Made by a program: the position numbers and the translations under genes. Positions 1,469 to 18,967 of a DNA stretch of 64,000 nucleotides are shown in pieces. The stretch is taken from the IMG/VR virus record IMGVR_UViG_3300032254_000001, positions 32,001 through 96,000 of that record. One strand, given 5' to 3'. The stretch's first letter is position 1. Every line of letters begins with the position of its first letter. This stretch comes from a virus. Its lineage: Duplodnaviria; Caudoviricetes. The notes below the pieces were generated by a model, which was given only the letters and a program-made list of their open reading frames with translations, was not told where the DNA came from and made no database searches.

Positions 1469-1542
1469 TGGATCTCCGGGTAGGACTCGAACCTACATTC
1501 CGGCAGTCAAAGTGCCGTGTCCTGCCATTAGACGACCAGAGA
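1469..1542 (-). tRNA. tRNA-Gln(TTG)
   Basis: Cloverleaf, loop CT-TTG-AC, encoded CCA. Confidence 0.9.
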
Positions 1543-3417: not shown

Positions 3418-3424
3418 AGCGGTA

Positions 3425-4398: not shown

Positions 4399-4437
4399 GT
4401 TATGCGGAGGAAGGTAGGTGTAAGTTGCTACCTTCCG

Positions 4438-4848: not shown

Positions 4849-4862
4849 AGGATTCCTATTAG

Positions 4863-5105: not shown

Positions 5106-5129
5106 GCAGTTTCTCCTTTATTGCATTGT

Positions 5130-5205
5130 TGCTAGCGATCAGGAGTCGAACCTGAGGTGTGACTATTAAGAGTCTAATGGTGTCCCCGTCCTCGGGGTCA
5201 CTAGC
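5130..5205 (-). ncRNA. tRNA-like RNA with 8-bp acceptor and 5-bp T-stem (selC-like fold), unclear anticodon
   Basis: GCTAGTGA/TCGCTAGC, D hairpin CCCCG-AGGA-CGGGG, TCAGG-TTCGACT-CCTGA. Confidence 0.5.
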
Positions 5206-5207
5206 GG

Positions 5208-5675
5208 TTATTTTAATACGTCTTTAACGATACCTGACGCAGACTTACCATCGTATAGACCATTGTGTCTGGCCTTAAGCAGTTTCATAACTTCGCCCAT
5301 CATACGTGGTGACTTTTCAGGAAGTTCAACGTCTACTATGTCAACAACTATAGCACGTAGTTCTTCATTAGTCATTAACTTAGGCATATACTTTTCAAGA
5401 ATATCAATCTCTAGTTGAAGCTCTAAAATCTTTGAAGCTTCGGGACTTTCAGCATGGGTACCTGTCTTTATTAAATGCCCCATAGTCTCATTTGCATTCT
5501 TGAGAAACTTCTTCATAACTGCTTGAACTTCAGCATCGGTAGATTCACGATTGCCGTCATTCTTACCAGGCATTGAAGCTTCGCCGATAAGGGTTGTTAA
5601 AATGCTAGCAGCCTCTTTATCTCTAATCTTGCGAGCCGTTAGCTGATCTGCTTTTACCGTTGCCATTAATGACAT
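5208..5675 (-). CDS. GatB/YqeY domain protein
   Basis: YqeY-like helical pattern (EIDILEKYMPK, MGEVMK). Confidence 0.8.
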   Translation of the reverse strand: MSLMATVKADQLTARKIRDKEAASILTTLIGEASMPGKNDGNRESTDAEVQAVMKKFLKNANETMGHLIKTGTHAESPEASKILELQLEIDILEKYMPKLMTNEELRAIVVDIVDVELPEKSPRMMGEVMKLLKARHNGLYDGKSASGIVKDVLK

Positions 5676-5697
5676 ATTGCTTCTCCTGGTTATTGTT

Positions 5698-5780
5698 TGG
5701 TACGTCTGGAGGGAGTCGAACCCTCAAGGGATCGGGGTTTAAACCCGTTAGCTGTGCCAATTTACATAATCCACAGACGC
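5698..5780 (-). tRNA. tRNA-Leu(TAA) without long variable arm, enlarged D-loop
   Basis: Loop TT-TAA-AC, A73, CCA. Confidence 0.75.
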
Positions 5781-5790
5781 ATTGTTAATA

Positions 5791-5907
5791 GGGTGATTAC
5801 CATAGGATTCGAACCTACAAGACGACAGTCTAACAGTGTGACCAAAACTAAGCTATACAAAGTTCCAGCCTAACCACCGAATGTGCTACCAATACACGTG
5901 ATAATCA
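5791..5907 (-). ncRNA. type-II tRNA-like RNA with a ~36-nt anticodon loop
   Basis: 8-bp acceptor, D-arm, stem CGGTG/CACTG, variable hairpin, T-arm. Confidence 0.55.
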
Positions 5908-5912
5908 TTGTT

Positions 5913-5989
5913 TGGCAGGGGAGGAGAGATTCGAACTCCCAACACGCGGATTTGGAGACCGCTGCTCTAGCCATTGGAGCTACACCCCT
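5913..5989 (-). tRNA. tRNA-Trp(CCA)
   Basis: Canonical cloverleaf, G73. Confidence 0.95.
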
Positions 5990-7120
5990 TTAAATCATAC
6001 TCCAGTAATTAGTACGTGGAGTTTCTACATTCTTTGCAATGAAAATAAACTTGTCTGTTTCGTAAACTAGCTTACCTTCTTTCTCGTAAGCTAAGTCTTC
6101 GTCCTGTACGTAAATTTCATCGTATAAATCATCTGGATCAAGCTCAGGAATATCAGCTCTACCCCTAACTTGGTCTGTCCTGGCTACTGCCTTGATCTTA
6201 ATGTAAGTATATCTGTTAGCACTACCTGGCTTAGAAACAAATGGCGTTTCAAATATTTCACGCTCTGTGTCTGTGCCACGTTCGATAATTTTAACAATTT
6301 CAAGCATTGCACCTGAGCTTTCACGTAAGTCAATGTTTAAATCTTCTGTAGTATCTGCAATAGCAGTACCGAAACGTAAATGCTCTTCAACAATTGATTG
6401 TAACATATCAAAGCTGAATATGTTCGAGCGTCTTGATACATCGGTAATATCTTTAACTATTTCTTTGCTTACTCCATTGTCTTGGCAGTAACCAACAATG
6501 CTACCTTCATCCAACTTCTTGTACTTGAAGTGGTAGTAAACACGACTTGGGCGATTCAGCATAAAGTCGTTAATATCAAGTTCGCTGTTCTCAGTCAATA
6601 TGAACATACGCTTTGTTTTATCAACACCGTCCATAAGTGACAACAGTGCCTTTTGTGGTATTTCACCTTCGTTGTTATGTCTATCTGACGATGCATACAT
6701 TTTACCAAATTCATCAAATACAACAGCGCATTCGCCAATTGTTTCAATAAAGTCTGTAAACTGTGAACCAGCATATGCATCTTTAATTAACAGAACTGGT
6801 AGCTCTAAATCAGTGACTACTTTGTTTGCAAGTAAAGACATTAGTAATGTTTTACCTGTACCTTTGTCTCCTGTCAGGAGAATGCCTGTTGAAGTATCGC
6901 GATCCTTGTAAGTGTTTAAACACTTTTCAACGCGACCTGGAGTTTTACCATAAATCTTTTCAGGAAGCTCCAGCTGGTCCTTTGTAATTGTAAGGTAAAA
7001 ACCTTGCAACTGACTATACTGAACAGTATAAATTCTTGGAGGCAAAGCGTCCAGCGTTGTTTCTTCATTCATATTGAATACGTGTACGGTTGAACCGCTT
7101 ACAAAGAACTTAGTTTTCAT
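5990..7120 (-). CDS. AAA+ ATPase
   Basis: Walker A GDKGTGKT, Walker B VVFDEFGK, RPSR arginine finger. Confidence 0.85.
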   Translation of the reverse strand: MKTKFFVSGSTVHVFNMNEETTLDALPPRIYTVQYSQLQGFYLTITKDQLELPEKIYGKTPGRVEKCLNTYKDRDTSTGILLTGDKGTGKTLLMSLLANKVVTDLELPVLLIKDAYAGSQFTDFIETIGECAVVFDEFGKMYASSDRHNNEGEIPQKALLSLMDGVDKTKRMFILTENSELDINDFMLNRPSRVYYHFKYKKLDEGSIVGYCQDNGVSKEIVKDITDVSRRSNIFSFDMLQSIVEEHLRFGTAIADTTEDLNIDLRESSGAMLEIVKIIERGTDTEREIFETPFVSKPGSANRYTYIKIKAVARTDQVRGRADIPELDPDDLYDEIYVQDEDLAYEKEGKLVYETDKFIFIAKNVETPRTNYWSMI

Positions 7121-7202
7121 GTATTAGCCTTAGGTATGTGTTTATTAACTTTTAAGTATTATATGACACTTTTGAGCATTGAGCAACTATTTTGGTAAAA
7201 AT

Positions 7203-7289
7203 TGGTATTCCGGACGGGAATCGAACCCGCTAATTGCTTTCGCAAAGCCTGAGTGAAAGTCAGGTGACCGACCGTTAGTCATCCGGAAT
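7203..7289 (-). tRNA. tRNA-Glu(TTC) with long variable arm
   Basis: Loop CT-TTC-AC; V-arm TTGC-GAAA-GCAA. Confidence 0.85.
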
Positions 7290-7295
7290 ATAATT

Positions 7296-7382
7296 TGGAG
7301 CCAAGAGTGAGATTCGAACTCACGACGGGGTTACCCCTCCGGCTTACAAAACCGGTGCAATCGTCCACTATGCGACCTTGGC
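7296..7382 (-). tRNA. tRNA-Thr(TGT) with long variable arm
   Basis: Loop TT-TGT-AA; V-arm GGGG-TAA-CCCC. Confidence 0.85.
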
Positions 7383-7398
7383 AAGATAAAATGTACTT

Positions 7399-7475
7399 TG
7401 GGGTGAAGGACGAGATTTGAACTCGCATCTGACTCATTCACAGTGAGGGGCTTTACCAATTAAGCTACCGACACC
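7399..7475 (-). tRNA. tRNA-His(GTG)
   Basis: Loop CT-GTG-AA, G-1/C73. Confidence 0.9.
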
Positions 7476-7489
7476 CCAAAATACACTCG

Positions 7490-7515
7490 TAAAAAAGCAG
7501 ACCGGAGTCTGCTTT
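7490..7515 (-). terminator. rho-independent terminator
   Basis: GCAGAC-TCCG-GTCTGC followed by T6. Confidence 0.85.
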
Positions 7516-7516
7516 A

Positions 7517-7700
7517 TGGTTGTGGGACGCGGACTTGAACCGCTGGTAGATTTCCTTCCCAACTAATTTAGCTATGGGCTTCAACTCCACAGCCCAAGAC
7601 AGTAACTCAAATACTTGCCCGAGGCGGTCGACTAGGTAGTCCCCAAGTTATGAGCAAGGGCGATTTATTGTGTAGTCGATACCACACCGAAGTGCCTAAC
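7517..7700 (-). ncRNA. structured RNA ending in a T-arm and CCA
   Basis: GCGG-TTCAAGT-CCGC, GGGAC/GTCCC, CCA, internal helices. Confidence 0.5.
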
Positions 7701-7713
7701 TAAAATTCTAAAA

Positions 7714-7831
7714 TGGTGCCTCCCGCGAGACTTGAACTCGCATGACTTTCGTCGGGGGATTTTATCGAACACCCTTATTTAAAGATGCTCTGTAAAAGTC
7801 CCCTGTGTATGCCTGATTCCACCAGAGAGGC
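7714..7831 (-). tRNA. tRNA-Leu-type gene with a 32-nt insertion in the anticodon loop
   Basis: Leu D-arm, V-arm and A73; stem GGGGA/TCCCC encloses 39 nt including a 10-bp hairpin. Confidence 0.8.
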
Positions 7832-7895
7832 TTTGTTTTTGTTTATTTATTATAACATCATGTGCTTCAAATAAATACCGTATAGGAGAAACACA

Positions 7896-8510
7896 ATGAA
7901 TAGAATACAAGAATACTTACCAAGCTACTGCTACAGTTCATCTAAGATGAAAAGCGTAGATGGTATTGTTATCCACTATTTCAGTGGTAAGTATCAATTT
8001 GCAGATGATCCGTTTAACACTGAAAAATGTTTAAATCTTTTTAAAGACTTAAACCGTCCCGCTAAAGAGCGAGAACACTTTAAGATGAACGATGTGCAAA
8101 AGCGTATGTACGCTTCAGCACACTTCATGATTGCACGAGACGGTACAATATATGATCTAGTTCCACTTCCACAACGTGCATGGCATGCTGGTAAATCCGA
8201 ATGGAACGGTAAGTCGCATTGCAATAACTGGATGGTTGGTATCGAAATGGTTGCTACTGGTAGCAGCGGATACACAGACGAACAGTATAAAGCACTTATT
8301 AATCTTACTGAAGAACTAATTAAAGAACACGATATCTCTTGGGATAACATCACAGGACACGAAAATGTCGCTCCTGGACGTAAAAGAGATCCAGGTTCAA
8401 AGTTTGATTGGGATCGTTATCGCGCAATGAAAGAACCAGCTAAGTTAGCATATGCTGCCGCTATGGCTGAATACATTCCGTGGGCTGACGACGAAGACGA
8501 CGATTTTTAA
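7896..8510 (+). CDS. N-acetylmuramoyl-L-alanine amidase (AmpD-like; candidate endolysin)
   Basis: IVIHY, SAHFMI, AWHAG, GIEM, GHENVAPGRKRDPG motifs. Confidence 0.9.
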   Translation: MNRIQEYLPSYCYSSSKMKSVDGIVIHYFSGKYQFADDPFNTEKCLNLFKDLNRPAKEREHFKMNDVQKRMYASAHFMIARDGTIYDLVPLPQRAWHAGKSEWNGKSHCNNWMVGIEMVATGSSGYTDEQYKALINLTEELIKEHDISWDNITGHENVAPGRKRDPGSKFDWDRYRAMKEPAKLAYAAAMAEYIPWADDEDDDF

Positions 8511-8512
8511 TT

Positions 8513-8598
8513 TGGTGCGCCGGGTGGGTTTCGAACCCACACGCTCTTTCGAGCACGAGGTTCTTAGCCTCGCATGTCTGCCATTCCATCACCAGCGC
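8513..8598 (-). tRNA. tRNA-Leu(AAG)
   Basis: Loop CT-AAG-AA, long V-arm. Confidence 0.85.
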
Positions 8599-8600
8599 AT

Positions 8601-8683
8601 TGGTACGTCCGGTGGGATTCGAACCCACAAAGGTCTGGTGTTTGAAACCAGTAGCTGTGCCAATTTACATTAACCACGGACGC
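8601..8683 (-). tRNA. tRNA-Leu(CAA) without long variable arm, enlarged D-loop
   Basis: Stem CTGGT/ACCAG, loop TT-CAA-AC. Confidence 0.8.
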
Positions 8684-8691
8684 ATTACATT

Positions 8692-8774
8692 TGGTACCTG
8701 GGGCGGGAGTCGAACCCGCAAGGGTCTGGAGTCTAAATCCAGTAGCTGTGCCAATTTACATTAACCACCCAGGC
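8692..8774 (-). tRNA. tRNA-Leu(TAG) without long variable arm, enlarged D-loop
   Basis: Stem CTGGA/TCCAG, loop TT-TAG-AC. Confidence 0.8.
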
Positions 8775-8780
8775 ATAATT

Positions 8781-8856
8781 TGGTAGGACGACAGGGCCTC
8801 GAACCCTGATCACAACGGTTAAAAGCCGCGTCTCTGCCCACTTGAGTTACCGTCCT
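8781..8856 (-). tRNA. tRNA-Lys(TTT)
   Basis: Loop CT-TTT-AA. Confidence 0.85.
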
Positions 8857-8862
8857 ATAATT

Positions 8863-8938
8863 TGGTGGACCGCCCCGGCAACGATCCGGGAACTTCTCGG
8901 GTAAGAGCCGAGTACTCTGCCAATTGAGTTAGCAGTCC
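8863..8938 (-). tRNA. tRNA-Lys(CTT)
   Basis: Loop CT-CTT-AC; T-loop ATCGTTG. Confidence 0.85.
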
Positions 8939-8944
8939 ATAATT

Positions 8945-9031
8945 TGGTGGGGCGACAGGGATTCGAACCCTGGATGTCCTTTCGGATCGTCTGATTAAAA
9001 GTCAGGTGCCATACCGCTTGGCGACCGCCCC
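8945..9031 (-). tRNA. tRNA-Lys(TTT) with long variable arm
   Basis: Loop CT-TTT-AA; V-arm TCC-GAAA-GGA. Confidence 0.85.
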
Positions 9032-9032
9032 G

Positions 9033-9060
9033 TAAAAAAACCTAGCAAGCTAGGTTTTTG
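9033..9060 (-). terminator. rho-independent terminator immediately 5' of tRNA-Lys
   Basis: AAAAACCTAG-CTTG-CTAGG-T7. Confidence 0.75.
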
Positions 9061-9165
9061 TTTGTATGTTAGTTTTATCCTTCTTCAAAAAGGACATCCA
9101 GGGTTCGAACCGATATCATAATCTATTGTTTACCAACATACGGTATAAATTGTGGTCGCGCTAGA

Positions 9166-9414
9166 TTATGCGGTTGCTACTGTGTCTGTTTCAGTTAACT
9201 TTGCAGTAACTTCGACGCCACGGCATTTTAGAACTGTTAGTGCTTTCTGATGAAACTTCTTCTGGCCTTTGTTGCTCAGAACTTCCATGAGTGCTTCTGT
9301 TGACATTGTGTGTGCTGATTTACCACCTTTACGTGTTCCGATTAAGAACTTATGTGCTGGTGCTGCAACAACTAGGCCGCTTTTAGTTTTCTTTGTTGAA
9401 CGATTCTTTGGCAT
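9166..9414 (-). CDS. small basic hypothetical protein
   Basis: AGAGG RBS before MPKNRST. Confidence 0.6.
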   Translation of the reverse strand: MPKNRSTKKTKSGLVVAAPAHKFLIGTRKGGKSAHTMSTEALMEVLSNKGQKKFHQKALTVLKCRGVEVTAKLTETDTVATA

Positions 9415-9491
9415 TACTATTTCCTCTGTTAAGGGTTTAAACAAAAACAGCGACAATATTGCCGCTGTTTTTAATTACATTTACGTTACTT

Positions 9492-10775
9492 TTAGAAACG
9501 TTGTGAATACGATGCTTGTAATTCGTACTGGTCCATTTTCAATGATACAGTTTGTGCATCAAAGCCTGTTGGTCCAGTAATAGTATTACTTGGCGCGTAC
9601 ATTGCAGCTAGTGAGAACTCTGAAGTGTCACTTAGCGGAGTTGTGAAACCAGCTGTGTAGTGGGTTTCTATTACTGCTGGAGCTAAAATGTTGAACATGT
9701 TCTGTCCATCTGTAATAGGCTGTTCAGCGTGTGAAACACCTAAGCGGTACTTAGTAGATGTACCAAACTCATAACCGAACTTGTAAATGGTCATATCTTC
9801 CCAACCAAATCCAGCACCGTTCTCACCGCCTAAGCGACCTGAACCGTCTTGGTAAGCCATTAAGTTTTGAACACTATTACCAATTGAGTCAACATCACCA
9901 TAAGCGATATGTTGTGCATCAAATACTAATGTAGTTGTTGGAGAAGTTTTAATAGCTACGCCTAATGTCGCTGTAGCTGGAATATTAAATTCACCACCGT
10001 TAGCAAATAAACCTGAGTAGTCTTCTAACAAGCTCATGTTAATTTGTGACTGGTAAGAAGCACCAAATGCTATAGGACCAGCGTCACCCTGCCAACCTAC
10101 TTTGATGCCAATACCTGTTGAAATATCAGCGTCATTGTTAGTTAGTTTAGATGCGTCTGTTGACATCTGACCAAACATTTGCAAGCCTTTAGCTTCGAAT
10201 GTCTGTATAGCTGTTACAGCACTAACGCCAATTGCGTGATGCTTATCGACTTGATGTGATAATGAAGCGTTAATGAATAACTGTTTCAAATCTACACCAG
10301 CAGTACCACCGCCAAATGTACCAGAAGCGCCTGGAACCGTCATTGCCATTGGAGAAGCAACACCTTTGTATTCTGTGTTCATGCCACCGCTTCCGTAAAC
10401 AGAAACACCAATTGCTGTTACGTCGCTAATCATTTTGTTATAACCAAAATGTGGAATTGCAAAGTAATCGTTGTCACTTTCGGCTGTACCTGGCATTAAT
10501 GGGAAAGTACCTGGTTGTCCGGTTGGATTGCCTTCTACCGTGTATTCACGACGTGGGCTAAAAATAGCTAAACCAACATCTAGTCGCGTACCTACTTTGA
10601 CCATGCCTGCTGGGTTAGTTGCTGATGCTAATGCATCCTGTGAGTATGCAACACCGGCGCCAGCCATACCTTTTTCTTTGGTACTGTATCCGTGTGCAAA
10701 ATATCCGTTTGTTGCAAATGCAACTGATGACGACATTAATGTAGCTGCCGCGATTGCCATTGTTAGTTTTTTCAT
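9492..10775 (-). CDS. OmpP1/FadL/TodX family outer-membrane transporter
   Basis: Signal peptide, ATNGYFAHGY..GMAGAGVA, NPAG hatch motif, terminal Phe. Confidence 0.9.
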   Translation of the reverse strand: MKKLTMAIAAATLMSSSVAFATNGYFAHGYSTKEKGMAGAGVAYSQDALASATNPAGMVKVGTRLDVGLAIFSPRREYTVEGNPTGQPGTFPLMPGTAESDNDYFAIPHFGYNKMISDVTAIGVSVYGSGGMNTEYKGVASPMAMTVPGASGTFGGGTAGVDLKQLFINASLSHQVDKHHAIGVSAVTAIQTFEAKGLQMFGQMSTDASKLTNNDADISTGIGIKVGWQGDAGPIAFGASYQSQINMSLLEDYSGLFANGGEFNIPATATLGVAIKTSPTTTLVFDAQHIAYGDVDSIGNSVQNLMAYQDGSGRLGGENGAGFGWEDMTIYKFGYEFGTSTKYRLGVSHAEQPITDGQNMFNILAPAVIETHYTAGFTTPLSDTSEFSLAAMYAPSNTITGPTGFDAQTVSLKMDQYELQASYSQRF

Positions 10776-10857
10776 TATAATTGTTTCCTCAATATTGATT
10801 GTTAACGTAAGTTAGTATACATATTGAGAACAAGTAAGTCTACTCGTTTGGCTAAAT

Positions 10858-10931
10858 TGGTACCCAGTGTTGGAATCGAACCAACGTCTCCGCCTTGTAA
10901 AAGCGGCGATAATCCCCTCAGCTAACCGGGT
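10858..10931 (-). tRNA. tRNA-Val(TAC)
   Basis: Loop TT-TAC-AA; weak D-stem. Confidence 0.75.
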
Positions 10932-10937
10932 GTAAAT

Positions 10938-11013
10938 TGGTATCTCCAGTAGGAACCGAGCCTACAACCTTCGCTATGTTAAAGCGATGCTCTACCAGTT
11001 GAGCTATGGAGAT
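10938..11013 (-). tRNA. tRNA-Val(AAC)
   Basis: Loop TT-AAC-AT; T-loop CTCGGTT. Confidence 0.75.
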
Positions 11014-11015
11014 AT

Positions 11016-11090
11016 TGGAGCTCTTACCCAGAACCGAGCTGGGATTTCAGCGTTACGAGTGCCGTGTTCTGCCTGTTGAACTATAAGAGC
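11016..11090 (-). tRNA. tRNA-Thr(CGT)
   Basis: Loop CT-CGT-AA; T-loop CTCGGTT. Confidence 0.8.
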
Positions 11091-11094
11091 AATT

Positions 11095-11170
11095 TGGTAT
11101 CCCTGACTGGATTCGAACCAGTATTCCAAGACTTAGGAGGTCCGGCGTTGTCCAGTTGACTTACAAGGAT
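11095..11170 (-). tRNA. tRNA-Arg(CCT)
   Basis: Loop CT-CCT-AA. Confidence 0.75.
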
Positions 11171-11176
11171 ATTGTT

Positions 11177-11252
11177 TGGCGTCCCCGGTAGGATTCGAAC
11201 CCACATTCTTCGGCTTAGAAGACCTAGCGTTCTCCAGTTGACTTACAGGGAC
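11177..11252 (-). tRNA. tRNA-Arg(TCT)
   Basis: Loop CT-TCT-AA. Confidence 0.8.
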
Positions 11253-11258
11253 ATAATT

Positions 11259-11339
11259 TGGCGCCCACGGTAGGGTTCGAACCTACATTTGCATCCAATT
11301 ACCTTACTCGACGTTCGTAGCGCCGGGGGTTACGTGGGC
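11259..11339 (-). tRNA. D-armless tRNA-Arg(ACG) with long variable region
   Basis: Acceptor, anticodon and T arms intact; D-arm replaced by TAACCCC. Confidence 0.7.
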
Positions 11340-11346
11340 AGTATTT

Positions 11347-11438
11347 TGGTACCTCTACCAGGATTCGAACCTGGACTACTCGCTAATCTGGCGATACGAC
11401 CGTATAAAAGTCGTGTGCTACCGTTACACTATAGAGGT
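11347..11438 (-). tRNA. tRNA-Ile(TAT) with long variable arm
   Basis: Loop TT-TAT-AC; V-arm TCGC..GCGA. Confidence 0.8.
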
Positions 11439-11445
11439 GCAGTGC

Positions 11446-11522
11446 TGGTGGGCCTTGTAGGATTTGAACCTACGACCAACGAATTATGAGTTCGCTGCTC
11501 TGACCAGCTGAGCTAAAGGCCC
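11446..11522 (-). tRNA. tRNA-Ile2(CAT)
   Basis: CAT anticodon; body resembles ileX-type tRNA. Confidence 0.75.
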
Positions 11523-11528
11523 GATGTT

Positions 11529-11614
11529 TGGTAGCGAGAGTAGGAGTCGAACCTACGAAACCTTTCGGTATAGGGTTATGAGCCCCATCACTTTATCCAC
11601 TTGTATATCTCGCG
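11529..11614 (-). tRNA. initiator-type tRNA-fMet(CAT) with long variable arm
   Basis: C1:T72 mismatch, three G-C pairs in the anticodon stem, V-arm ACC-GAAA-GGT. Confidence 0.75.
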
Positions 11615-11710
11615 TCAATAAGTTACATCACTTACTATGATTCGGCCGAACCACGGATAGTGATGCTTTCCCGGCAAGTATTGTAAGCGGCCGCTTAATT
11701 TCCTTGCCTT

Positions 11711-11786
11711 GCATACCAGGTGGGACTCGAACCCACATACACAGCCTTCAACGGCTGCCGCTGTTCCAATTCGCGTACTAGCGTAC
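11711..11786 (-). pseudogene. degenerate tRNA
   Basis: T-arm intact, 6-nt anticodon loop, weak acceptor, no CCA. Confidence 0.45.
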
Positions 11787-11797
11787 TTCTTTAAATT

Positions 11798-11873
11798 TGG
11801 TGCATCCTGTTGGTAACGCTCCAACTCCTATGGGGTTTCAATCCATTGCTTCTACTTAGTTAGCTTAGGATGC
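11798..11873 (-). tRNA. tRNA-Phe(GAA)
   Basis: Loop TT-GAA-AC; T-loop AGCGTTA. Confidence 0.8.
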
Positions 11874-11878
11874 ATGTT

Positions 11879-11952
11879 TGGTAGTTCCAGAAGGACTTGA
11901 ACCCTCATAGACCGGTAATCGGCCGGCAGCCTTACCATTAGACGATGGAACT
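11879..11952 (-). tRNA. tRNA-Ile(GAT)
   Basis: Loop CC-GAT-TA (lacks U33). Confidence 0.75.
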
Positions 11953-11958
11953 ATTGTT

Positions 11959-12046
11959 TGGTACTACCGGTTGGAGTCGAACCAACTGTAAGGAATTACC
12001 CTTGCACGGTTATCAGCCGTGTGCTTAACCGTTCAGCGTCGGTAGT
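11959..12046 (-). tRNA. tRNA-Ile(GAT) with long variable arm
   Basis: Loop CT-GAT-AA; V-arm AAGGG-TAAT-TCCTT. Confidence 0.85.
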
Positions 12047-12052
12047 ATAATA

Positions 12053-12149
12053 TGGCGGAAGAGGGCGGACTCGAACCCCCACAGCGCAGGATCGCTACGC
12101 TGACCGGTTTTCAAGACCGGGCCGATACCAAATTTCGGTTGACTCTTCC
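12053..12149 (-). tRNA. tRNA-Ser(TGA)
   Basis: Type II cloverleaf, G73. Confidence 0.9.
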
Positions 12150-12242
12150 ATTAATTCGTTCGCGACGTTCGATGCAATTGGCTCCGTCCACGACACTGAC
12201 ACTAACCGTTACCATTGCACACGGTTGACGTGTTTGTAAAAT

Positions 12243-12329
12243 TGGCGGAAGATGTGAGATTCGAACTCACACAGCCTTACGGCTGTACTCCTTAGCAGGG
12301 AGCTATGTTACCAGTTGCATCAATCTTCC
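12243..12329 (-). tRNA. tRNA-Ser(GCT)
   Basis: Type II cloverleaf, G73. Confidence 0.9.
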
Positions 12330-12397
12330 AGTAATAGTGTTGGGCCATATAGATTCAGATTCTACTGTAAATTGTTTGACAACACTACATTTTAAAA

Positions 12398-12530
12398 TGG
12401 GGCAATGTGTTGGAGTTGAACCAACTATAACTAACGACAAACTTTACGTATCATCGCTGCAGGCTAGTTACGCTCCGCTGTAGCTACTAAACCGTTAGTG
12501 CATTAACCAACAATTATGCTATACACCGCC
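12398..12530 (-). ncRNA. His-like tRNA body with a long (~55 nt) anticodon-loop insertion
   Basis: 8-bp acceptor GGCGGTGT/ACATTGCC plus CCA, stem CTAACG/CGTTAG, T-arm. Confidence 0.6.
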
Positions 12531-12541
12531 ATTGAATTTGA

Positions 12542-12679
12542 TTGAGGAAAGTGGAACCACTTTTTATGGCGGCTGTGCTACCGTTACACTACATGCCAGC
12601 ATTCCTGGTACATGGGAGGAGTCGAACCTCCACTTGCTGCTTGGCTTATTTTAGAAGGAAGTAAATCCCATAGCCTCAA
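12542..12679 (-). ncRNA. Y-RNA-like (YrlA-type) RNA with a circularly permuted tRNA module
   Basis: GAGG-CTA-stem-TCCTTCT scaffold enclosing a T-arm, loop-closed acceptor stem and D-arm. Confidence 0.65.
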
Positions 12680-12880
12680 ATTTTTGTTACTTTTTCGATT
12701 CATCTATTAGGTGCTTAATAGCCCTTAGTGAACGTAAGTCTACTTCCGCTTGCTTGCGAAAGATTGGATTTTTTTGTGTTTTTAAAACTTCAACCAGTAA
12801 GTTAATTTTCTGGTTTAAACGTTCTATTGTTATATTAATGTACTCATGTTAATACCCTCTATGGTAAGTGTATTTATGAT

Positions 12881-12966
12881 TGGTGCTGCCTGTAGGATTC
12901 GAACCTACTCATCCAGTGGAATCGGGTTTACAATCCGACGTGACTCTCCATCTTCACCGCGACAGC
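12881..12966 (-). tRNA. tRNA-Tyr(GTA)
   Basis: Loop TT-GTA-AA, V-arm. Confidence 0.85.
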
Positions 12967-12978
12967 GTAATTTTAATT

Positions 12979-13065
12979 TGGTGGATCTAGTTGGATTCGA
13001 ACCAACAATGCCAGAAGCGCCGAGTTTACAGTCCGGTGGTAGCAACCAGTTCTACCATTAGATCC
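12979..13065 (-). tRNA. tRNA-Tyr(GTA)
   Basis: Loop CT-GTA-AA, V-arm. Confidence 0.85.
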
Positions 13066-13071
13066 ATTGTT

Positions 13072-13157
13072 TGGAAGCGACGGTGAGGGTCGAACTCACA
13101 ATGCCCGAAAGCGCCAGATTCAAAGTCTGGTGGGGTTACCAATTTTCCTACATCGCT
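13072..13157 (-). tRNA. tRNA-Gln(TTG) with long variable arm
   Basis: Loop CT-TTG-AA; V-arm GCT-TTCG-GGC. Confidence 0.85.
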
Positions 13158-13167
13158 ATAATTTATT

Positions 13168-13242
13168 TGGAGACTCTACTCGGTTTCGAACCGAGGCTTG
13201 AAGATTTGCAATCAACCGCACTACCAATTATGCTACAGAGTC
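13168..13242 (-). tRNA. tRNA-Cys(GCA)
   Basis: Loop TT-GCA-AA, U73. Confidence 0.8.
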
Positions 13243-13250
13243 AAAGTGTT

Positions 13251-13322
13251 TGGCACCGCGACAAGGTGTTGATCCCTGCAAGCCGGGGGTTGGAATCCCA
13301 GCACCTCCCCGGAGGCCACGGC
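13251..13322 (-). tRNA. atypical selC-like tRNA, anticodon probably CCA (Trp)
   Basis: D hairpin GCCTC-CGGG-GAGGT, 8-nt anticodon loop ATTCCAAC, G73, CCA. Confidence 0.5.
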
Positions 13323-13335
13323 ATTAAAAAGGTAC

Positions 13336-13444
13336 CTTGTAAGCTCTCGTTAGACTGATTAACTACCGCGTGTAGTCGCGTTCTAACAATAGGCGTGTAC
13401 TGACGCCTCGTTTTACTTGTGATGCATTGCATCCTTCTTACAAG
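13336..13444 (-). ncRNA. multibranch structured RNA candidate
   Basis: Closing stem CTTGTAAG/CTTACAAG with three internal hairpins. Confidence 0.5.
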
Positions 13445-13518
13445 CAGCCCTGTACAGGATTCGAACCTGTGTTTCCAGCCTTCACGGGCCGGTGTCCTAA
13501 CCACTAGACGAACGGGGC
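13444..13518 (-). tRNA. Glu/Asp-body tRNA with 8-nt anticodon loop (CCGTGAAG)
   Basis: Intact D and T arms, no CCA. Confidence 0.5.
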
Positions 13519-13669
13519 ATAAAAATCGTGGAACTGATCATATTACAAAACAGTACCTAAACACTGTTACAATGCAATAAGGGTAGCGCAAAGTTCCGTA
13601 GCCTATATTCTACCATTTTCTGACTTCACTGCATATGCATAATTAGGTTGCACATACATCACATCAAAT

Positions 13670-13932
13670 TGGCTGTGACAGTTGGGTTCGAACCAACGTT
13701 ACCGGCTCAAATCGCTTATGCTGGGTGCCGGTGTTTTGCCGCCTACTTGCTTTCATTGTACACTTTCTTGATAAGTTTCTTTTAGCTTTTGCACGTCTGG
13801 CCTGCTCAATCCTTTCAAAAGAGTCTGGTAGTTTTTATAGCCTAAGCGATTGTTACCATTGGTGTTACTAACTAAGGTACTTCTCAACATTACTAATGCA
13901 GTCTTACTAACTTTCGTCTAAACTACATCACA
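13670..13932 (-). ncRNA. tRNA gene with a large D-loop insertion carrying a 45-codon ORF and a 20-nt anticodon loop
   Basis: Acceptor TGTGATG/TGTCACA-G-CCA, D-stem GTTT/AAAC, CCGGC/GCCGG, T-arm. Confidence 0.7.
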
Positions 13933-14007
13933 ATAAATTCTTGCAGTTTCTCCGACTCGATCCGTTAACTAGTATGGATGTCCGTACAATGCCTCGTAGA
14001 AGTAAAT

Positions 14008-14081
14008 TGGTGGACACGCGGAGAGTCGAACTCCATCTTCCTCATTGCAAAAGAGGTGCTTTCCCGTTAAGCTAACGGCCC
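14008..14081 (-). tRNA. tRNA-Ala(TGC)
   Basis: G3:U70, loop TT-TGC-AA; imperfect acceptor. Confidence 0.75.
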
Positions 14082-14161
14082 ATGATTTGGAGGAAAGGGT
14101 TGGCTTTTCACCAACTATAAACGGTAACAGAGAACGTTGTGTTACCTCACTCGCCATTGTT

Positions 14162-14235
14162 TGGTGGAGATTCGGAGAATCGAACTCCGATCAAAGCGTT
14201 GCAAACGCCCCGTAATCCCGTTATACTAAACCCCC
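14162..14235 (-). tRNA. tRNA-Ala(TGC)
   Basis: G3:U70, loop TT-TGC-AA. Confidence 0.9.
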
Positions 14236-14256
14236 AATTGTTTGGCTTTATAAATT

Positions 14257-14331
14257 TGGCTCCGGTAGCTGGAATCGAACCAACCTGCCACAGATTAACA
14301 GTCTGCTGCCACACCTTGCGGCCCTACCGGA
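14257..14331 (-). tRNA. tRNA-Asn(GTT)
   Basis: Loop CT-GTT-AA, G73. Confidence 0.9.
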
Positions 14332-14332
14332 A

Positions 14333-14776
14333 TTATCCGTATTGCGGTAATCCCCTAGCCTTGCGACCTTTACCTGTGTTTTTTGCGCCAAATGTTTCTT
14401 GTTGACTATCACAGTTTGGACATACCATTTGAAAATTGTCTGGATGATCGTTTGATGCATTGCCGTCAATGTGATCACACCATAGTGAAATAGGTTTATT
14501 GTTCCAGCTATCGATGCCACAGATATTACATTTATTGCCATCCCGCTTAATAACAAATTCTCTGATCAGCTTTCTCGGAGTTTTTAATCCTAAGTCACAT
14601 CCTGCTAACCAATCCTGATATCGTTTCTCAAATAACTTTTGCGATTTATCTTTTCTATAATTTATATTACACACTGTACTACAAAATTTATGATTATAAC
14701 TATAACCTTTGAACTTAAATTCTGTACTACAATGACCGCATATAAAAGTTTCGTCTTTTTTCCTTTTGATGTTCAT
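14333..14776 (-). CDS. HNH endonuclease
   Basis: CNICG, DHIDGNASND...VCPNC. Confidence 0.85.
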   Translation of the reverse strand: MNIKRKKDETFICGHCSTEFKFKGYSYNHKFCSTVCNINYRKDKSQKLFEKRYQDWLAGCDLGLKTPRKLIREFVIKRDGNKCNICGIDSWNNKPISLWCDHIDGNASNDHPDNFQMVCPNCDSQQETFGAKNTGKGRKARGLPQYG

Positions 14777-14954
14777 ATGGTAGAGCCTTTTAAAATAGTT
14801 ATATTTTATTTATCACTCTACCACCTGAACAGAAATTTTAAACTACTTTATCACGACATTGATCGCCACCACAGCAACCCTGTTTCGTTCAATTTCGTTA
14901 AGGTAGCATTACACAACTTCACCGGTTAAGATCCGCCTTCATGTAACCCTTAAT

Positions 14955-15040
14955 TGGCTCCGAGAGTAGGGATCGAACCTACGTTGTTTACACAAGCCTA
15001 TGGTTAACAGCCACGCGCATTACCACTCTGCCACCTCGGA
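14955..15040 (-). tRNA. tRNA-Asn(GTT) with long variable arm
   Basis: Loop CT-GTT-AA; V-arm TTGT-GTAA-ACAA. Confidence 0.85.
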
Positions 15041-15048
15041 ATTATAAA

Positions 15049-15189
15049 TGCTCTTACTGGGGCAGGCTGGGATTCTAACCCACAACGACTTGACTATTGT
15101 CGCGTTTGCATGTAACGCACCGAGGGTCAACTCGTCAAGTTCCACGCCTTTACATACCCGCGGTATGCTTCTCTGCCCCAGTAAGAACA
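15049..15189 (-). ncRNA. tRNA-like RNA with a 17-bp terminal helix
   Basis: Terminal inverted repeat, T-like arm TGGG-TTAGAAT-CCCA, CTTGAC/GTCAAG arm with two hairpins. Confidence 0.55.
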
Positions 15190-15199
15190 CTTTTAAAAT

Positions 15200-15273
15200 T
15201 GGAGCCTGGTAAGGGACTCGAACCCTCATCTGTACGTTGGCAACGTACGGTTCTACCGTTGAACTAACCAGGC
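15200..15273 (-). tRNA. tRNA-Gly(GCC)
   Basis: Canonical cloverleaf, U73. Confidence 0.95.
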
Positions 15274-15274
15274 G

Positions 15275-15952
15275 TTATTCTTGTTTTAATACTCTACCTT
15301 TTTTAAAACCTTCTGGTATAGTATCATTCTTTTTGATCTTTTTATTAATTGTTCCGTCTGTTATCCACATCGTTCCGTACTGTGAATTGCCACTGCCTTG
15401 CTGACACTTAGATGAATTTGCACCTATAGCATCTTTTGTTTCTTGTGTATGCTTCTTATTTTTAAATGTACCGTGACCGTAGCGTTCAAGTATAGTTGCT
15501 TTAATCTTTTGTCCTGCTTGCTTGAACGATTCAGGCGTTCTATTTTTACCTGACATTTTACCAATGATACTCTTGAAATCATCACCGTACTTTTCTAGTA
15601 ATATACTATCTGTTATTTCTCGTGCCCTGCGATTCTTTTGAATACGTGCCTCTTCGTTAGAGTTTATATAATCCCATCCACCAAAGCCACCAACCTTAAG
15701 ATTGTATGTATTTTCTTCTGCAATAAAGTCTTTATTAACTATTTCGGCTTCTTTATTAAACATATCTTCTGGATTGTCAAATACATGTAAAATTTCTTTG
15801 CTAAAATTTTCAACACCGTGTTTATTAATTGCATAGTTAAGGTACTTTCCTGAACCTAAATAACCATCGTTTAAGTTACTGGTCTTATGCGCGCCTATAT
15901 AGACCTTGCCTGTAACTTTATTTGACGTCTTATAAATTGTATAGTAAACCAT
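15275..15952 (-). CDS. GIY-YIG (Seg-like) homing endonuclease
   Basis: YTIYKTSNKVTGKVYIGAH..YLGSG, E and YNL motifs; NUMOD3-like tail. Confidence 0.9.
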   Translation of the reverse strand: MVYYTIYKTSNKVTGKVYIGAHKTSNLNDGYLGSGKYLNYAINKHGVENFSKEILHVFDNPEDMFNKEAEIVNKDFIAEENTYNLKVGGFGGWDYINSNEEARIQKNRRAREITDSILLEKYGDDFKSIIGKMSGKNRTPESFKQAGQKIKATILERYGHGTFKNKKHTQETKDAIGANSSKCQQGSGNSQYGTMWITDGTINKKIKKNDTIPEGFKKGRVLKQE

Positions 15953-15991
15953 ACTATTATTTATGACGTTCGAGTCCATATCGAACTCTAA

Positions 15992-16072
15992 TGAGCGGGT
16001 GACGAGAATCGAACTCGCCATGCTTTCGCGTCTGGTTGGAAACCAGGTTCCACACCTTGTGGACTCACCCGC
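15992..16072 (-). tRNA. tRNA-Gly(TCC) with extended variable arm, CCA not encoded
   Basis: Loop TT-TCC-AA; V-arm GC-GAAA-GC. Confidence 0.8.
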
Positions 16073-16390: not shown

Positions 16391-16465
16391 TGGCGACGTA
16401 GAAGGGAATCGAACCCTCATTGTACTGATAGACAATCAGCTGCATTACCAATCTGCCACTACGCC
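16391..16465 (-). tRNA. tRNA-Asp(GTC)
   Basis: Loop TT-GTC-TA, G73. Confidence 0.85.
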
Positions 16466-16740
16466 GTAATTCTTTTCTTACATCCCCAAGTATCTGTTTG
16501 TCTATGACAGTTAGGGCAAAGCAATCTTAAGTTAGATGGAAATGCATTTTCTACATCTCCGTCTATATGATCTAAATCTAATACAATTGGCTTATTTTGC
16601 CATTCGTTTATTCCGCATATTGCACAGAACTCACCGTCTCTTTCCACGACATACTTTCCTGCTTCTATCAGTGGTACTTGTACAGTTTTCCATTGATAAG
16701 CTTGCTGACATGTGTTGTTGCAAGGCGCTTATTACTCCTT
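16459..16740 (-). pseudogene. HNH endonuclease remnant
   Basis: CAICG, DHIDGD..N..LLCPNCH; upstream CNNTCQ zinc motif follows in-frame stops and has no start codon. Confidence 0.7.
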
Positions 16741-17071: not shown

Positions 17072-17145
17072 TGGTATCCCGAAGGGGTATCGATCCCCTG
17101 TTGCCAAGTTGAAAGCCTGGAGTTCTACCATTAAACTACCGGGAT
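17072..17145 (-). tRNA. tRNA-Glu(TTC), first gene of the array
   Basis: Loop CT-TTC-AA; T-loop ATCGATA. Confidence 0.85.
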
Positions 17146-17675: not shown

Positions 17676-17704
17676 ATTATAATGTAGCTAACTTACTGTG
17701 TCAA
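17676..17704 (-). promoter_or_regulatory. sigma70 promoter P1 of the tRNA operon
   Basis: TTGACA-17-TATAAT. Confidence 0.9.
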
Positions 17705-17767
17705 CCTCTATTTTAAATTAATTTAAAAATAGTGGCTAACGCCGTGTTGTTTATTAAGTATGTAGCT

Positions 17768-17796
17768 ATTATATGACAGCTAATATACTGTGTCAA
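17768..17796 (-). promoter_or_regulatory. sigma70 promoter P2 (tandem duplicate)
   Basis: TTGACA-17-TATAAT with the same downstream AGCTACATACTTAAT. Confidence 0.9.
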
Positions 17797-18010: not shown

Positions 18011-18967
18011 TTATGGTATAATTCCTTGCTGTACCTGCATATAGAAGTATTTCGCTATTGCAGCATTAACGCGCTCGGACATATGATACCCATCCCTGTT
18101 ACATAATAATATTCTTTTTGCATAGCCTAAGAATATAGTTATTAGTCTGTGGTCACATGGCTGGAAGTGCTTGTAAACATTTTCGCCCATTACGCAAAGC
18201 TTACAGAATTCCATGTACGGCATCCAACTCTCGCCTGCGTTGTGATTGTACTTTTCTAATAAGAACTCTGACGATAAGAAAGAGTTTATATTAATGTCAC
18301 GGAAGTCAGTCTTTACTAACTTCATGTAATCATGTACATCCGGAAAGTGTTCGTATATACACTTTAGTTCATCTTCGCGGAAAGTCCACGGAGGTAAGAA
18401 CTGTGTATGTGCGCCATGTATCCAGTAATTTTTCTTAAAGCTAACTATAGTTCCGTCGATGCCTGCGTGTACGCCTGCACCGGTTTTAGTTAACTTAATT
18501 CTAGATTCTACGTTGTTGTCTTCGTATAAGTTCTGTAAAACAAAAACGTGTTGAACATCAAAGAACTCTTTTGCTTTTTCGAGTAGCTCTGGATAATACA
18601 CAAATGAAGTTCGACTAAGGCCAAAATTCAATGTTGGTATATCAAAGTACTTTCCTAGTTGGTAAGGCCAACTGTGTTCAACTGGACCACCTACGTTGGA
18701 AGTAAAGCTATCGCCTAAGCAAATGTTTATCTTCTGTCCGTACAGTGATTCAAAATCCCTATCCCTGGCACCCCATGAATTAAAACTGTAATCAAAATCG
18801 GTTAATGGATAATGATCCCAATATGATTTGCCTAGTATACATTCCTCGGGGTTGTCTCTACTGAACGGAGCTTGAAAAACTTTGTTTGCCCTACGTGCGG
18901 CCTTTATCCAGACTGAACGAGGCAAACCCCATTTCTTTATTATATCATTTGATATTGTTGATTTCAT
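18011..18967 (-). CDS. SGNH-hydrolase-like hypothetical protein
   Basis: ICLGDSFT, SWP, LNFGLS blocks. Confidence 0.5.
   Translation of the reverse strand: MKSTISNDIIKKWGLPRSVWIKAARRANKVFQAPFSRDNPEECILGKSYWDHYPLTDFDYSFNSWGARDRDFESLYGQKINICLGDSFTSNVGGPVEHSWPYQLGKYFDIPTLNFGLSRTSFVYYPELLEKAKEFFDVQHVFVLQNLYEDNNVESRIKLTKTGAGVHAGIDGTIVSFKKNYWIHGAHTQFLPPWTFREDELKCIYEHFPDVHDYMKLVKTDFRDININSFLSSEFLLEKYNHNAGESWMPYMEFCKLCVMGENVYKHFQPCDHRLITIFLGYAKRILLCNRDGYHMSERVNAAIAKYFYMQVQQGIIP

Follow-up and report, generated by a model that had tools for sequence, protein, structure and literature searches.

In bacteria, a long variable arm is the textbook mark of only four kinds of transfer RNA (tRNA), those for leucine, serine, tyrosine and selenocysteine. 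This study concerns nine tRNA genes of other identities, each with a long and paired variable arm, that lie in the tRNA array of a virus of the Caudoviricetes whose DNA comes from a microbial-mat metagenome (IMG/VR record IMGVR_UViG_3300032254_000001). The record is a complete genome of 344,483 bp with direct terminal repeats and 40% G+C; the stretch analyzed here (the window) is 64,000 nucleotides (nt) long and corresponds to bases 32001-96000 of the record, and coordinates refer to the window unless the genome is named.

The closest described molecules are the class II tRNAs of bacteria, especially tRNA-Tyr(GUA), with which the phage tRNAs share the five-arm cloverleaf, an arm stem of 3-4 bp, about three unpaired nucleotides before the T stem and, in five of the nine, a 3-bp D stem with an enlarged loop, but from which they differ in carrying the anticodons and identity marks of Glu, Thr, Lys, Ile, initiator Met, Gln, Asn and Gly. 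A second group, the allo-tRNAs and the (8/4) phage tRNA-Ser/His (Mukai et al. 2017, PMC5389517), also combines a long arm with anticodons other than those of Ser, Leu and Tyr; UAU is frequent among the allo-tRNAs, and some of them lie in phage tRNA clusters (PMC5389517). However, allo-tRNAs have acceptor/T-stem combinations of 8/4 or 9/3, a long D stem with a tetraloop and the serine identity G73/U73 (PMC5389517), whereas the nine phage tRNAs all fit the 7/5 layout and have ordinary D arms and cognate marks. An 8/4 layout was considered and rejected, being conceivable for Glu and Gly only (A8 with U65) and impossible for family members with U8; ARAGORN draws an eighth acceptor pair for Glu only. 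A8 replaces the near-universal U8 in three of the nine (Glu, Ile(GAU) and Gly), and among the three orthologues of the long Glu gene one has A8 (L018) and two have U8 (G001 and L019). Class II bodies with Gly or Ile anticodons have also been described in nematodes (nev- and nov-tRNAs; Hamashima et al. 2012, 2016, as cited in PMC5389517). These nematode tRNAs are eukaryotic, and the phage tRNAs differ from them in that their identity elements point to cognate charging. By the account of Hamashima et al., the nematode molecules are said to be charged with leucine or serine.

Several phage tRNAs are known to resist host nucleases, including T5 tRNA-Lys, tRNA-Thr and tRNA-Asn against AriB of the PARIS system (PMC11464382, PMC12409363), a phage tRNA-Thr against P2-OLD (PMC12445682), and a number of anticodon-loop variants (PMC10264068). 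Some members of the present set have the anticodons of tRNAs that defence systems attack and may likewise differ from the host tRNA; however, in the escapes described so far point changes affect the loop or stem of the anticodon arm or an arm that already exists, and no whole arm is added. According to PMC13096335 (citing PMC11555353), the tRNA-Tyr of T5 escapes retron-Eco7 through a distinct variable loop. The terms "variable arm" and "variable loop" are absent from PMC10264068, phages go unmentioned in a 2020 review of non-canonical tRNAs, and no description of long-armed Glu, Thr, Lys, Ile, Gln, Asn, Gly or initiator tRNAs of phages was found in the full-text literature, the coverage of which does not extend to subscription journals.

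Structure of the nine long-armed tRNAs

Eight of the nine genes were called by ARAGORN as minus-strand tRNAs of 86-92 nt, Gly(UCC) being the one not called, and all nine score above the Rfam RF00005 threshold of 29 bits (35.4-58.1 bits; Table 1). Their variable regions are 12-22 nt long and each contains a stem of 2-5 bp, which places them in class II by the variable region (more than 10 nt, with a stem-loop). An earlier note on this DNA, made from the letters alone, had singled out these nine as tRNAs of short-arm identity with a paired variable hairpin, several of them capped by GAAA or TTCG tetraloops, and its description held: arms are present in all nine, including Gly, which was recovered through Rfam, with GAAA loops in four (Glu, Lys, Met and Gly) and UUCG in Gln. 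The 3' CCA is encoded in eight of the genes (the exception is Gly(UCC)), and all nine keep 7-nt anticodon loops and TTCRA T loops. The D arm has a 3-bp stem and an enlarged loop of 9-11 nt in Thr, the initiator, Ile(GAU), Gln and Asn, and a 4-bp stem with a 7-nt loop in Glu, Lys, Ile(UAU) and Gly. The minimum-energy folds of the long Glu and Ile(UAU) tRNAs are five-arm cloverleaves, and that of Gly(UCC) is a clean one (z = -3.6); the last scores 35.4 bits with the Rfam tRNA model and 37.8 bits with the tRNA-Sec model. The arm of Ile(UAU) displays GAU within an anticodon-like 7-nt loop, and an arm loop of this YAGAUNA type was present in three of the six long Ile(UAU) tRNAs examined.

The geometry of the arm was determined in a pooled sample of 144 distinct long tRNAs of non-Leu/Ser/Tyr identity from phage loci. 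A variable hairpin of at least 3 bp is present in 76% of these, compared to 34% after shuffling of the arms (at most 43% over 200 shuffles), and the loop belongs to the GNRA type in 53 of 122. Stems are mostly 3-4 bp long, and the number of unpaired bases before the T stem is most often 3, followed by 4; in the same loci this 3' spacer peaks at 3 in tRNA-Tyr, 2 in tRNA-Leu and 1 in tRNA-Ser, the stems of the last being 4-8 bp. The arms are of tyrosine-type geometry and are unlike those of Ser and Leu tRNAs. Arm length and orientation are the features that seryl-tRNA synthetase (SerRS) reads (PMC7609411, PMC5389517). With a Tyr-type arm on the one hand and a non-Tyr anticodon and discriminator on the other, capture by SerRS should be avoided. 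Bacterial tRNA introns are group I introns of more than 200 nt located in the anticodon loop; on this general knowledge, small introns were rejected as the source of hairpins of 12-22 nt at positions 44-48.

The array also contains two tRNA-like genes with leucine anticodons (CAA and UAG), A73 and CCA, in which the variable loop is only 5-6 nt long and a 6-bp hairpin capped by GUAA stands where the D arm would be expected. Neither was called by ARAGORN, and one of them scores 22.5 bits with Rfam. These Leu-anticodon genes, which lack the arm, present the opposite of the main finding, so that in this phage the switch of body type runs both ways.

Table 1. Coordinates of the long-armed tRNA genes, their variable arms, their short twins and other features of the window.
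Feature	Position	Strand	Details
tRNA-Glu(UUC), long	7203..7289	minus	87 nt; ARAGORN; Rfam 42.5 bits; A8 not U8; CCA
Glu arm	7231-7247		4-bp stem, GAAA loop, 3-nt 3' spacer
tRNA-Thr(UGU), long	7296..7382	minus	87 nt; ARAGORN; Rfam 52 bits
Thr arm	7324-7338		GGGG/CCCC stem, loop of 3-5 nt, 3-nt spacer
tRNA-Lys(UUU), long	8945..9031	minus	87 nt; ARAGORN; Rfam 56.3 bits
Lys arm	8973-8989		UCC/GGA stem, GAAA loop, CAUC spacer
tRNA-Ile(UAU), long	11347..11438	minus	92 nt; ARAGORN; Rfam 58.1 bits; no short twin
Ile(UAU) arm	11375-11396		4-bp stem, 7-nt loop CAGAUUA
Initiator tRNA(CAU), long	11529..11614	minus	86 nt; ARAGORN; Rfam 43 bits
Initiator arm	11557-11570		ACC/GGU stem, GAAA loop, UUC spacer
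tRNA-Ile(GAU), long	11959..12046	minus	88 nt; ARAGORN; Rfam 48.6 bits; A8
Ile(GAU) arm	11987-12004		5-bp stem, UAAU loop, ACA spacer
tRNA-Gln(UUG), long	13072..13157	minus	86 nt; ARAGORN; Rfam 47.8 bits
Gln arm	13100-13113		GCU/GGC stem, UUCG loop, AUU spacer
tRNA-Asn(GUU), long	14955..15040	minus	86 nt; ARAGORN; Rfam 50.7 bits
Asn arm	14983-14998		UUGU/ACAA stem, GUAA loop, 1-nt 3' spacer only
tRNA-Gly(UCC), long	15994..16072	minus	79 nt without CCA; A8; no short UCC twin
Gly arm	16019-16030		2-bp stem, GAAA loop
tRNA-Glu(UUC), short	17072..17145	minus	same anticodon as long Glu
tRNA-Lys(UUU), short	8781..8856	minus	tight cluster with Lys(CUU) and long Lys, 6-nt spacers
tRNA-Ile(GAU), short	11879..11952	minus	6 nt from long Ile(GAU)
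tRNA-Asn(GUU), short	14257..14331	minus	same anticodon as long Asn
tRNA-Gln(UUG), short	1469..1542	minus	same anticodon as long Gln
tRNA-Thr(UGU), short	genome 622-696		outside the window; sixth twin
tRNA array	~17150 to 7200	minus	
Two sigma-70 consensus promoters	17676-17796	minus	12/12 matches each; upstream of tRNA array
Leu-anticodon tRNA-like genes (CAA, UAG)	8603-8686, 8690-8775	minus	
HAD-domain gene	18967-19560	minus	
T4 Rnl1-type RNA ligase gene	genome 8945-9367		outside the window
Amidase gene	7896-8510		
FadL / Toluene_X family gene	9492-10775	minus	
Homing-endonuclease-like genes (three)	14333-14776, 15275-15960, 16459-16647	minus	
PAS-GGDEF diguanylate cyclase gene	2449-3417	minus	
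tRNA with CUA anticodon	61267-61340	minus	
tRNA-like genes with atypical anticodon loops	11711-11784, 13446-13518	minus	
119-nt tRNA-model match	1632-1750	minus	

Conservation, amino-acid identity and distribution

A degenerate pattern derived from the Gln gene matched five viral and nine metagenome stretches, from which 12 distinct sequences were aligned. In this family 97.3% of the cells are paired, covariation reaches 0.71 compared to 0.22 in shuffled alignments (0 of 500 shuffles as high), and both bases have changed in 15 of the 22 pairs, two of which belong to the three pairs of the extra arm; covariation is strong in every helix, the extra arm among them. The invariant positions are G10, G2-C71 (12/12) and those of the anticodon loop, positions 1 and 72 form A-U or U-A in 12/12, and the discriminator varies between G, U and A. 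The positions that specify Gln under the E. coli rules (weak 1-72, G2-C71, G10, U35 G36 A37) are kept across the family, and two A.C mismatches occur in the D stem. Compensatory change was also observed elsewhere. In the relative G001, the flanks of the Lys arm are unchanged but enclose a GAG/CUC stem with a GUAA loop, all three pairs covarying; in a relative of Ile(GAU) from marine-metagenome contigs, 12000 C>T and 11993 G>A together turn an arm pair from G-C to A-U; and in metagenome relatives of Gly, G31-C39 is flipped (16043, 16035) and the arm loop changes from GAAA to GCAA (16026), which is still GNRA. Long Glu, Asn and Thr tRNAs recur in other contigs with unrelated arm stems, with long Thr(UGU) found in six further loci with different arm stems, and thirteen further long Asn tRNAs, nearly all with U1-A72 and G73.

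It is conceivable that the nine are decaying pseudogenes or artefacts of the tRNA finders, a view that would account for the missing CCA of Gly(UCC) and its absence from the ARAGORN calls, and for the single-sequence minimum-energy folds of Gln and Asn, which are not cloverleaves. This view is scarcely credible because of the covariation, which largely refutes it, the compensatory changes and the recurrence of the design in many independent contigs, and the Rfam scores of 35-58 bits stand against it as well. Judged by these patterns of change, the nine are intact variant tRNAs kept by selection.

The long forms share acceptor and discriminator marks with the short isoacceptors of the same phage. 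Long and short Glu both have A1-U72, U2-A71 and A73, Asn has a UCCG acceptor start and G73 in either form, G1-C72 and C2-G71 are shared by all four Thr tRNAs of the phage, and long Gln has a weak 1-72 pair and U73, like both short Gln genes. Gly(UCC) carries the Gly identity set (G1-C72, C2-G71, G3-C70, U73), and Lys and both long Ile forms have A73, with U35 in Lys in addition; the discriminator is A73 in five of the nine, U73 in three more and G73 in the last. The CAU gene is by its sequence an initiator, since positions 1 and 72 are mismatched (C1xU72), A11:U24 is present and three G-C pairs (G29-31:C39-41) stand at the base of its anticodon stem, in addition to G2-C71 and C3-G70; it is the sole initiator-type tRNA found in the phage. 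The Ser tRNAs of the phage have a GGAAGA acceptor start and G73, and none of the nine resembles them. No match to the synthetase families PF00152, PF00587, PF00749 and PF00133 was found in the genome, in a search that did not include other families (e.g. MetRS, PF09334), and no match to a CCA-adding enzyme (PF01743) was found either; since no phage synthetase was detected in the four families searched, it would be host enzymes that charge the nine. We consider it very probable that the nine are real tRNAs used with their cognate amino acids.

It has to be considered, however, that the arm might turn these tRNAs into substrates of SerRS or of the leucyl- or tyrosyl-tRNA synthetases (LeuRS, TyrRS), so that codons for Glu, Lys, Asn and others would partly be read as Ser, Leu or Tyr. 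By the established identity rules, the bacterial Tyr set resembles G1-C72, A73 and U35 together with a Tyr-type arm, and long Lys, which has all of these, comes near it; SerRS ignores the anticodon, and long Asn has G73 and a Ser-like spacer of 1 nt. There are also precedents in the allo-tRNAs (PMC5389517) and in the nematode V-arm tRNAs (Hamashima et al., as cited there). Nevertheless, the discriminator and first acceptor pairs of the long forms match the cognate short copy and not the phage Ser tRNAs, the stems of 2-5 bp are mostly short and the spacers in the wider sample are unlike those of Ser and Leu arms, and the Gln identity marks are invariant across the family. In addition, the long forms are the only phage copies found in G001 for four abundant codons, and since GAA, ACA and AAA are among the commonest codons of the phage, misreading would damage the proteome. 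Mischarging of this kind is therefore quite improbable.

Six of the nine long forms have a short twin with the same anticodon in this genome. The five pointed out in the earlier note (Glu, Lys, Ile(GAU), Gln and Asn) were all found, and Thr(UGU) was added as a sixth; the remaining three, Ile(UAU), Gly(UCC) and the initiator, exist in this phage in the long form only. Among the twins, short Ile(GAU) has C33 instead of the universal U33, and the T loop of short Glu(UUC) is AUCGAUA, without T54. In the relative G001, the record of which is about 72% complete, only the long form was found for each of Lys(UUU), Gln(UUG), Asn(GUU) and Glu(UUC), which argues that the long form is a primary tRNA and not a mere spare. 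The proposal that the nine are a systematic set of variant backup tRNAs consequently stands as far as a systematic, intact and conserved set is concerned, but with three long-only identities here and four in G001, backup is not the rule. With respect to codon use in the phage, GAA ranks first, ACA fourth, AAA fifth and AUU sixth, AAC and AAU together account for 58 per thousand, and the identities present in two copies are those of the commonest codons. Dosage may explain the presence of two copies, but not why one of them is long.

A further view is that the long forms are RNAs unused by ribosomes, serving as nuclease decoys or inhibitors, amino-acid donors or regulators. The paper on PARIS raises the inhibition of AriB by overexpressed viral tRNAs (PMC12409363), long Lys keeps the AriB site (see below), and among the RNAs of the array are several that resemble tRNAs but clearly are none. 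However, all features needed for charging and decoding are conserved, the initiator marks included, and several identities exist in the long form only, making a role outside translation very unlikely. The pure decoy function entertained in the earlier note finds little room for the same reason, as all translation-relevant features are kept under selection.

To estimate how common the design is, a long-initiator pattern (the anticodon arm universal to initiators, with a T loop 16-30 nt after it) was run against 2.9 million viral contigs. It matched 108 viral stretches or contigs, and in 80 of these 108 loci ARAGORN confirmed 74 initiator-type tRNAs of 80-94 nt; a 1x72 mismatch, A73 and a short arm capped by GNRA prevail among the 61 distinct long initiators that were parsed. 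In prokaryotes, the same pattern matched 47 stretches in 185,579 species genomes (one per species), several of them archaeal or in phage-like tRNA arrays. A scan for initiators of normal length gave at least 116 matches, and 80 loci found through such an initiator served as controls. With long defined as at least 82 nt in identities other than Leu, Ser and Tyr, the long share of short-arm identities is 43 of 612 in the flanks of long initiators and 17 of 308 in the control loci, or 5-7%. The highest rates are those of Asn(GUU) (17-18%), Thr(UGU) (8-19%) and Ile(UAU) (20-60%), followed by the elongator CAU (13%) and Lys(UUU) (5-10%), and in the first locus set no long form was present among 28 Phe, 23 Ala(UGC), 15 Arg(ACG) and 16 Gly(GCC) tRNAs. 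Nine in one array is the maximum among the loci examined, the next highest number being five. The design is also present in a cultured phage, Erythrobacter phage XM05 (PV416404.1), which has an 86-nt tRNA-Asn homologue; in bases 1-9605 of XM05, ARAGORN finds 16 tRNA genes where the GenBank record annotates none. A 93-nt tRNA-Trp(CCA) with a long variable region was observed at 1765-1857 of locus L012 (record G004), a contig that also has long Gln and Asn tRNAs. Phage T5 was considered as an example of a tested long arm and rejected, as its Lys, Thr and Asn tRNAs are of normal length (75-78 nt). Of the checks proposed in the earlier note, ARAGORN and a search for arm variants in other phages have returned eight called genes and long forms that are widespread in phages. 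The counts suggest that the design is general in phages, with hundreds of them carrying at least one long-armed tRNA.

Possible reasons for the added arm

The explanation that we favor as a whole, at a probability of roughly 0.45, is that the nine are working cognate tRNAs, with a short-arm identity on a class II body that has a short tyrosine-type extra arm, and that the arm benefits the phage by evasion of host nucleases. Such tRNAs would be transcribed with the array, processed by host RNase P, charged by the cognate synthetases of the host and used for decoding on the ribosome, which already handles class II tRNAs. The arm would project from the hinge beside positions 26-28 and 40-44 and would alter the shape that is read by tRNA-cutting defence nucleases, e.g. 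the Toprim enzymes AriB and P2-OLD, so that the phage copy could outlast the destruction of the host tRNA with that anticodon. A short and a long copy together would then offer two independent escape routes on high-demand codons. Taken alone, the claim that defence evasion is the selective reason for the arm is a tentative one, with the odds somewhat against it.

Several observations are consistent with evasion. AriB of PARIS cuts the Lys(UUU), the Thr(UGU) and the Asn(GUU) tRNA at 40/41 (PMC12409363), and P2-OLD cleaves within the anticodon stem, both at 28/29 and behind position 40 (PMC12445682). The three AriB targets all have counterparts of the same anticodon among the long tRNAs, and the long Thr, Lys and Gln forms correspond to targets of P2-OLD (PMC12409363, PMC12445682). 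In the pooled loci, long arms are enriched in the three identities Asn(GUU), Thr(UGU) and Lys(UUU), with 20 of 147 compared to 40 of 773 (odds ratio 2.9, p = 7e-4, post hoc). In addition, the phage encodes an RNA ligase of the T4 Rnl1 type and a HAD domain of the RNA-repair type called "Swiss Army Knife", the latter situated just upstream of the tRNA operon, and from these genes it appears to be equipped to repair cut tRNAs. The two-way change of body type in the array would also fit an escape from nucleases that recognize shape.

However, it is important to note the points that weigh against this explanation. The enrichment was tested post hoc, and in the unbiased control loci taken by themselves it is not significant (p = 0.17); the long-armed Trp, Cys, Pro, Val and Gly tRNAs are not among the targets named in the cited nuclease papers. 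Long Lys keeps the exact AriB site (U36AAUCA41), which short Lys has lost, and other long Lys tRNAs are without the site, so that there is no consistent pattern. Class II synthetases (those for Asn, Lys, Thr and Gly) face the variable side of the tRNA, so that tolerance of the arm would have to be assumed. Finally, relaxed constraint on accessory phage tRNAs could explain body changes in two directions equally well. The idea that long forms keep host-like anticodon stems since the arm protects them was rejected as a rule, as it is true of the Lys tRNA of this phage only and fails in five other long Lys tRNAs.

According to a rival view, the nine are functional cognate tRNAs in which the arm has no purpose of its own, class II bodies (likeliest Tyr) having been recruited through changes of anticodon and discriminator or a hairpin inserted at the most tolerant site of the tRNA, with selection only keeping the arm paired for folding. 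In geometry the arms agree with those of phage tRNA-Tyr, a D arm of class II type is present in five of the nine as well, long Gln adjoins tRNA-Tyr in three genomes and is similar to it in anticodon and variable region, and the long Asn (GUU), His (GUG) and Asp (GUC) tRNAs are one anticodon base away from Tyr (GUA). Moreover, tRNAs engineered to carry a hairpin in the variable arm tolerate it (PMC7590224), the tRNA genes of phages are accessory, and Leu tRNAs without an arm also occur. On the other hand, the families persist over deep divergence, with acceptor stems nearly saturated with changes, the long design is rare in cellular genomes, and the identities are uneven, as seen in the absence of Phe, Ala(UGC), Arg(ACG) and Gly(GCC) from the long forms of the first locus set. 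A nearest-neighbour comparison aimed at a Tyr origin gave no clear paralogy, with identities of 0.64-0.72 that are biased towards long sequences. We regard such a purposeless inheritance as unlikely, though only a little less probable than evasion itself.

It is also possible to imagine the arm as a handle on which a phage factor docks (the repair ligase, a modification enzyme or another tRNA-binding protein) or as a prop for the core of tRNAs made late, in bulk and under-modified. The GNRA loops noted above are typical modules of tertiary or protein contacts, A8 in three of the nine and the A.C mismatches in the D stem of Gln indicate that cores may need support, and RNA repair genes are present. 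However, the sequence and length of the arm vary freely between orthologues, which speaks against sequence-specific recognition, and no candidate partner was identified, making this role improbable. Returning to nuclease evasion, a broader version would treat the switch of body type, with an arm added to Asn, Thr, Lys, Gln, Glu, Ile, Gly and even initiator tRNAs and removed from Leu, as a general counter-defence that is accepted by translation and missed by shape-reading nucleases, so that the switched tRNAs would outlast an attack on the host pool; this extension is more doubtful than evasion itself.

Setting of the array and significance

The genome contains 43 matches to the Rfam tRNA model and 39 ARAGORN genes. 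The array runs on the minus strand downstream of the two promoters listed in Table 1, and long-armed genes lie 6-7 nt from ordinary tRNAs (short Lys/Lys(CUU)/long Lys; short Ile/long Ile/Ser); because the genes are only 6-7 nt apart, long and ordinary tRNAs would share transcripts. Three free-standing homing-endonuclease-like genes are located among the tRNAs, as in the tRNA regions of T4 and T5, and their types are zinc-ribbon/HNH-like, GIY-YIG SegE-like and HNH. The array also encloses a gene for an outer-membrane protein of the FadL / Toluene_X family, 55-59% identical to proteins of uncultured Gammaproteobacteria; by this similarity, the gene is probably host-derived, and it is the clue that the host is probably an uncultured gammaproteobacterium. 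A gene for a PAS-GGDEF diguanylate cyclase was also observed in the window.

Other unusual tRNA-like elements accompany the array. Two genes have ARAGORN anticodon loops of 6 and 8 nt ("tg" and "gtga"). A 119-nt match to the tRNA model (43.7 bits), in which a 53-nt insertion replaces the anticodon loop, has similar counterparts of 112-119 nt in the relatives G001, G004 and G005 and is probably a member of a Y-RNA-like family. Far from the array lies an amber-reading tRNA with a CUA anticodon, which is also present in G001; the relative G002 has a UUA (ochre-reading) tRNA in its place, and these tRNAs may serve stop-codon suppression or recoding in this phage group. No close cultured relative was found by megablast or blastn of the array against GenBank phages, which gave generic tRNA matches only, and the initiator gene had zero matches in a search against GenBank phages. 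Searches for relatives anchored on proteins (the amidase, the HAD protein and an alignment of three amidase sequences) returned two or three loci only, and locus L014 was rejected as a relative, having 63% GC and no tRNAs.

With regard to annotation, these results show that a gene such as Gly(UCC) escapes a standard finder and that the tRNA array of XM05 is absent from its record. The study adds the long families of Gln, Lys, Gly and Ile(GAU), the geometry of the arm, and the frequency of long forms per identity. One phage breaks the rule that restricts long arms to Leu, Ser, Tyr and Sec for nine identities, the initiator included. If the nine are cognately charged, eight host synthetases, the formyltransferase, the initiation factors and EF-Tu would all tolerate an added arm, which would be useful for tRNA engineering, with the arm as a natural insertion site for tags. 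If the evasion account is true, immune evasion would act on the architecture of tRNA and not on the sequence of the anticodon loop, which would be a new principle. An arm that blocks nucleases would add a new layer to tRNA-targeting immunity (PARIS, OLD, retrons, Septu, Cas13, Schlafen) and would help to explain the near-complete tRNA sets of large phages.

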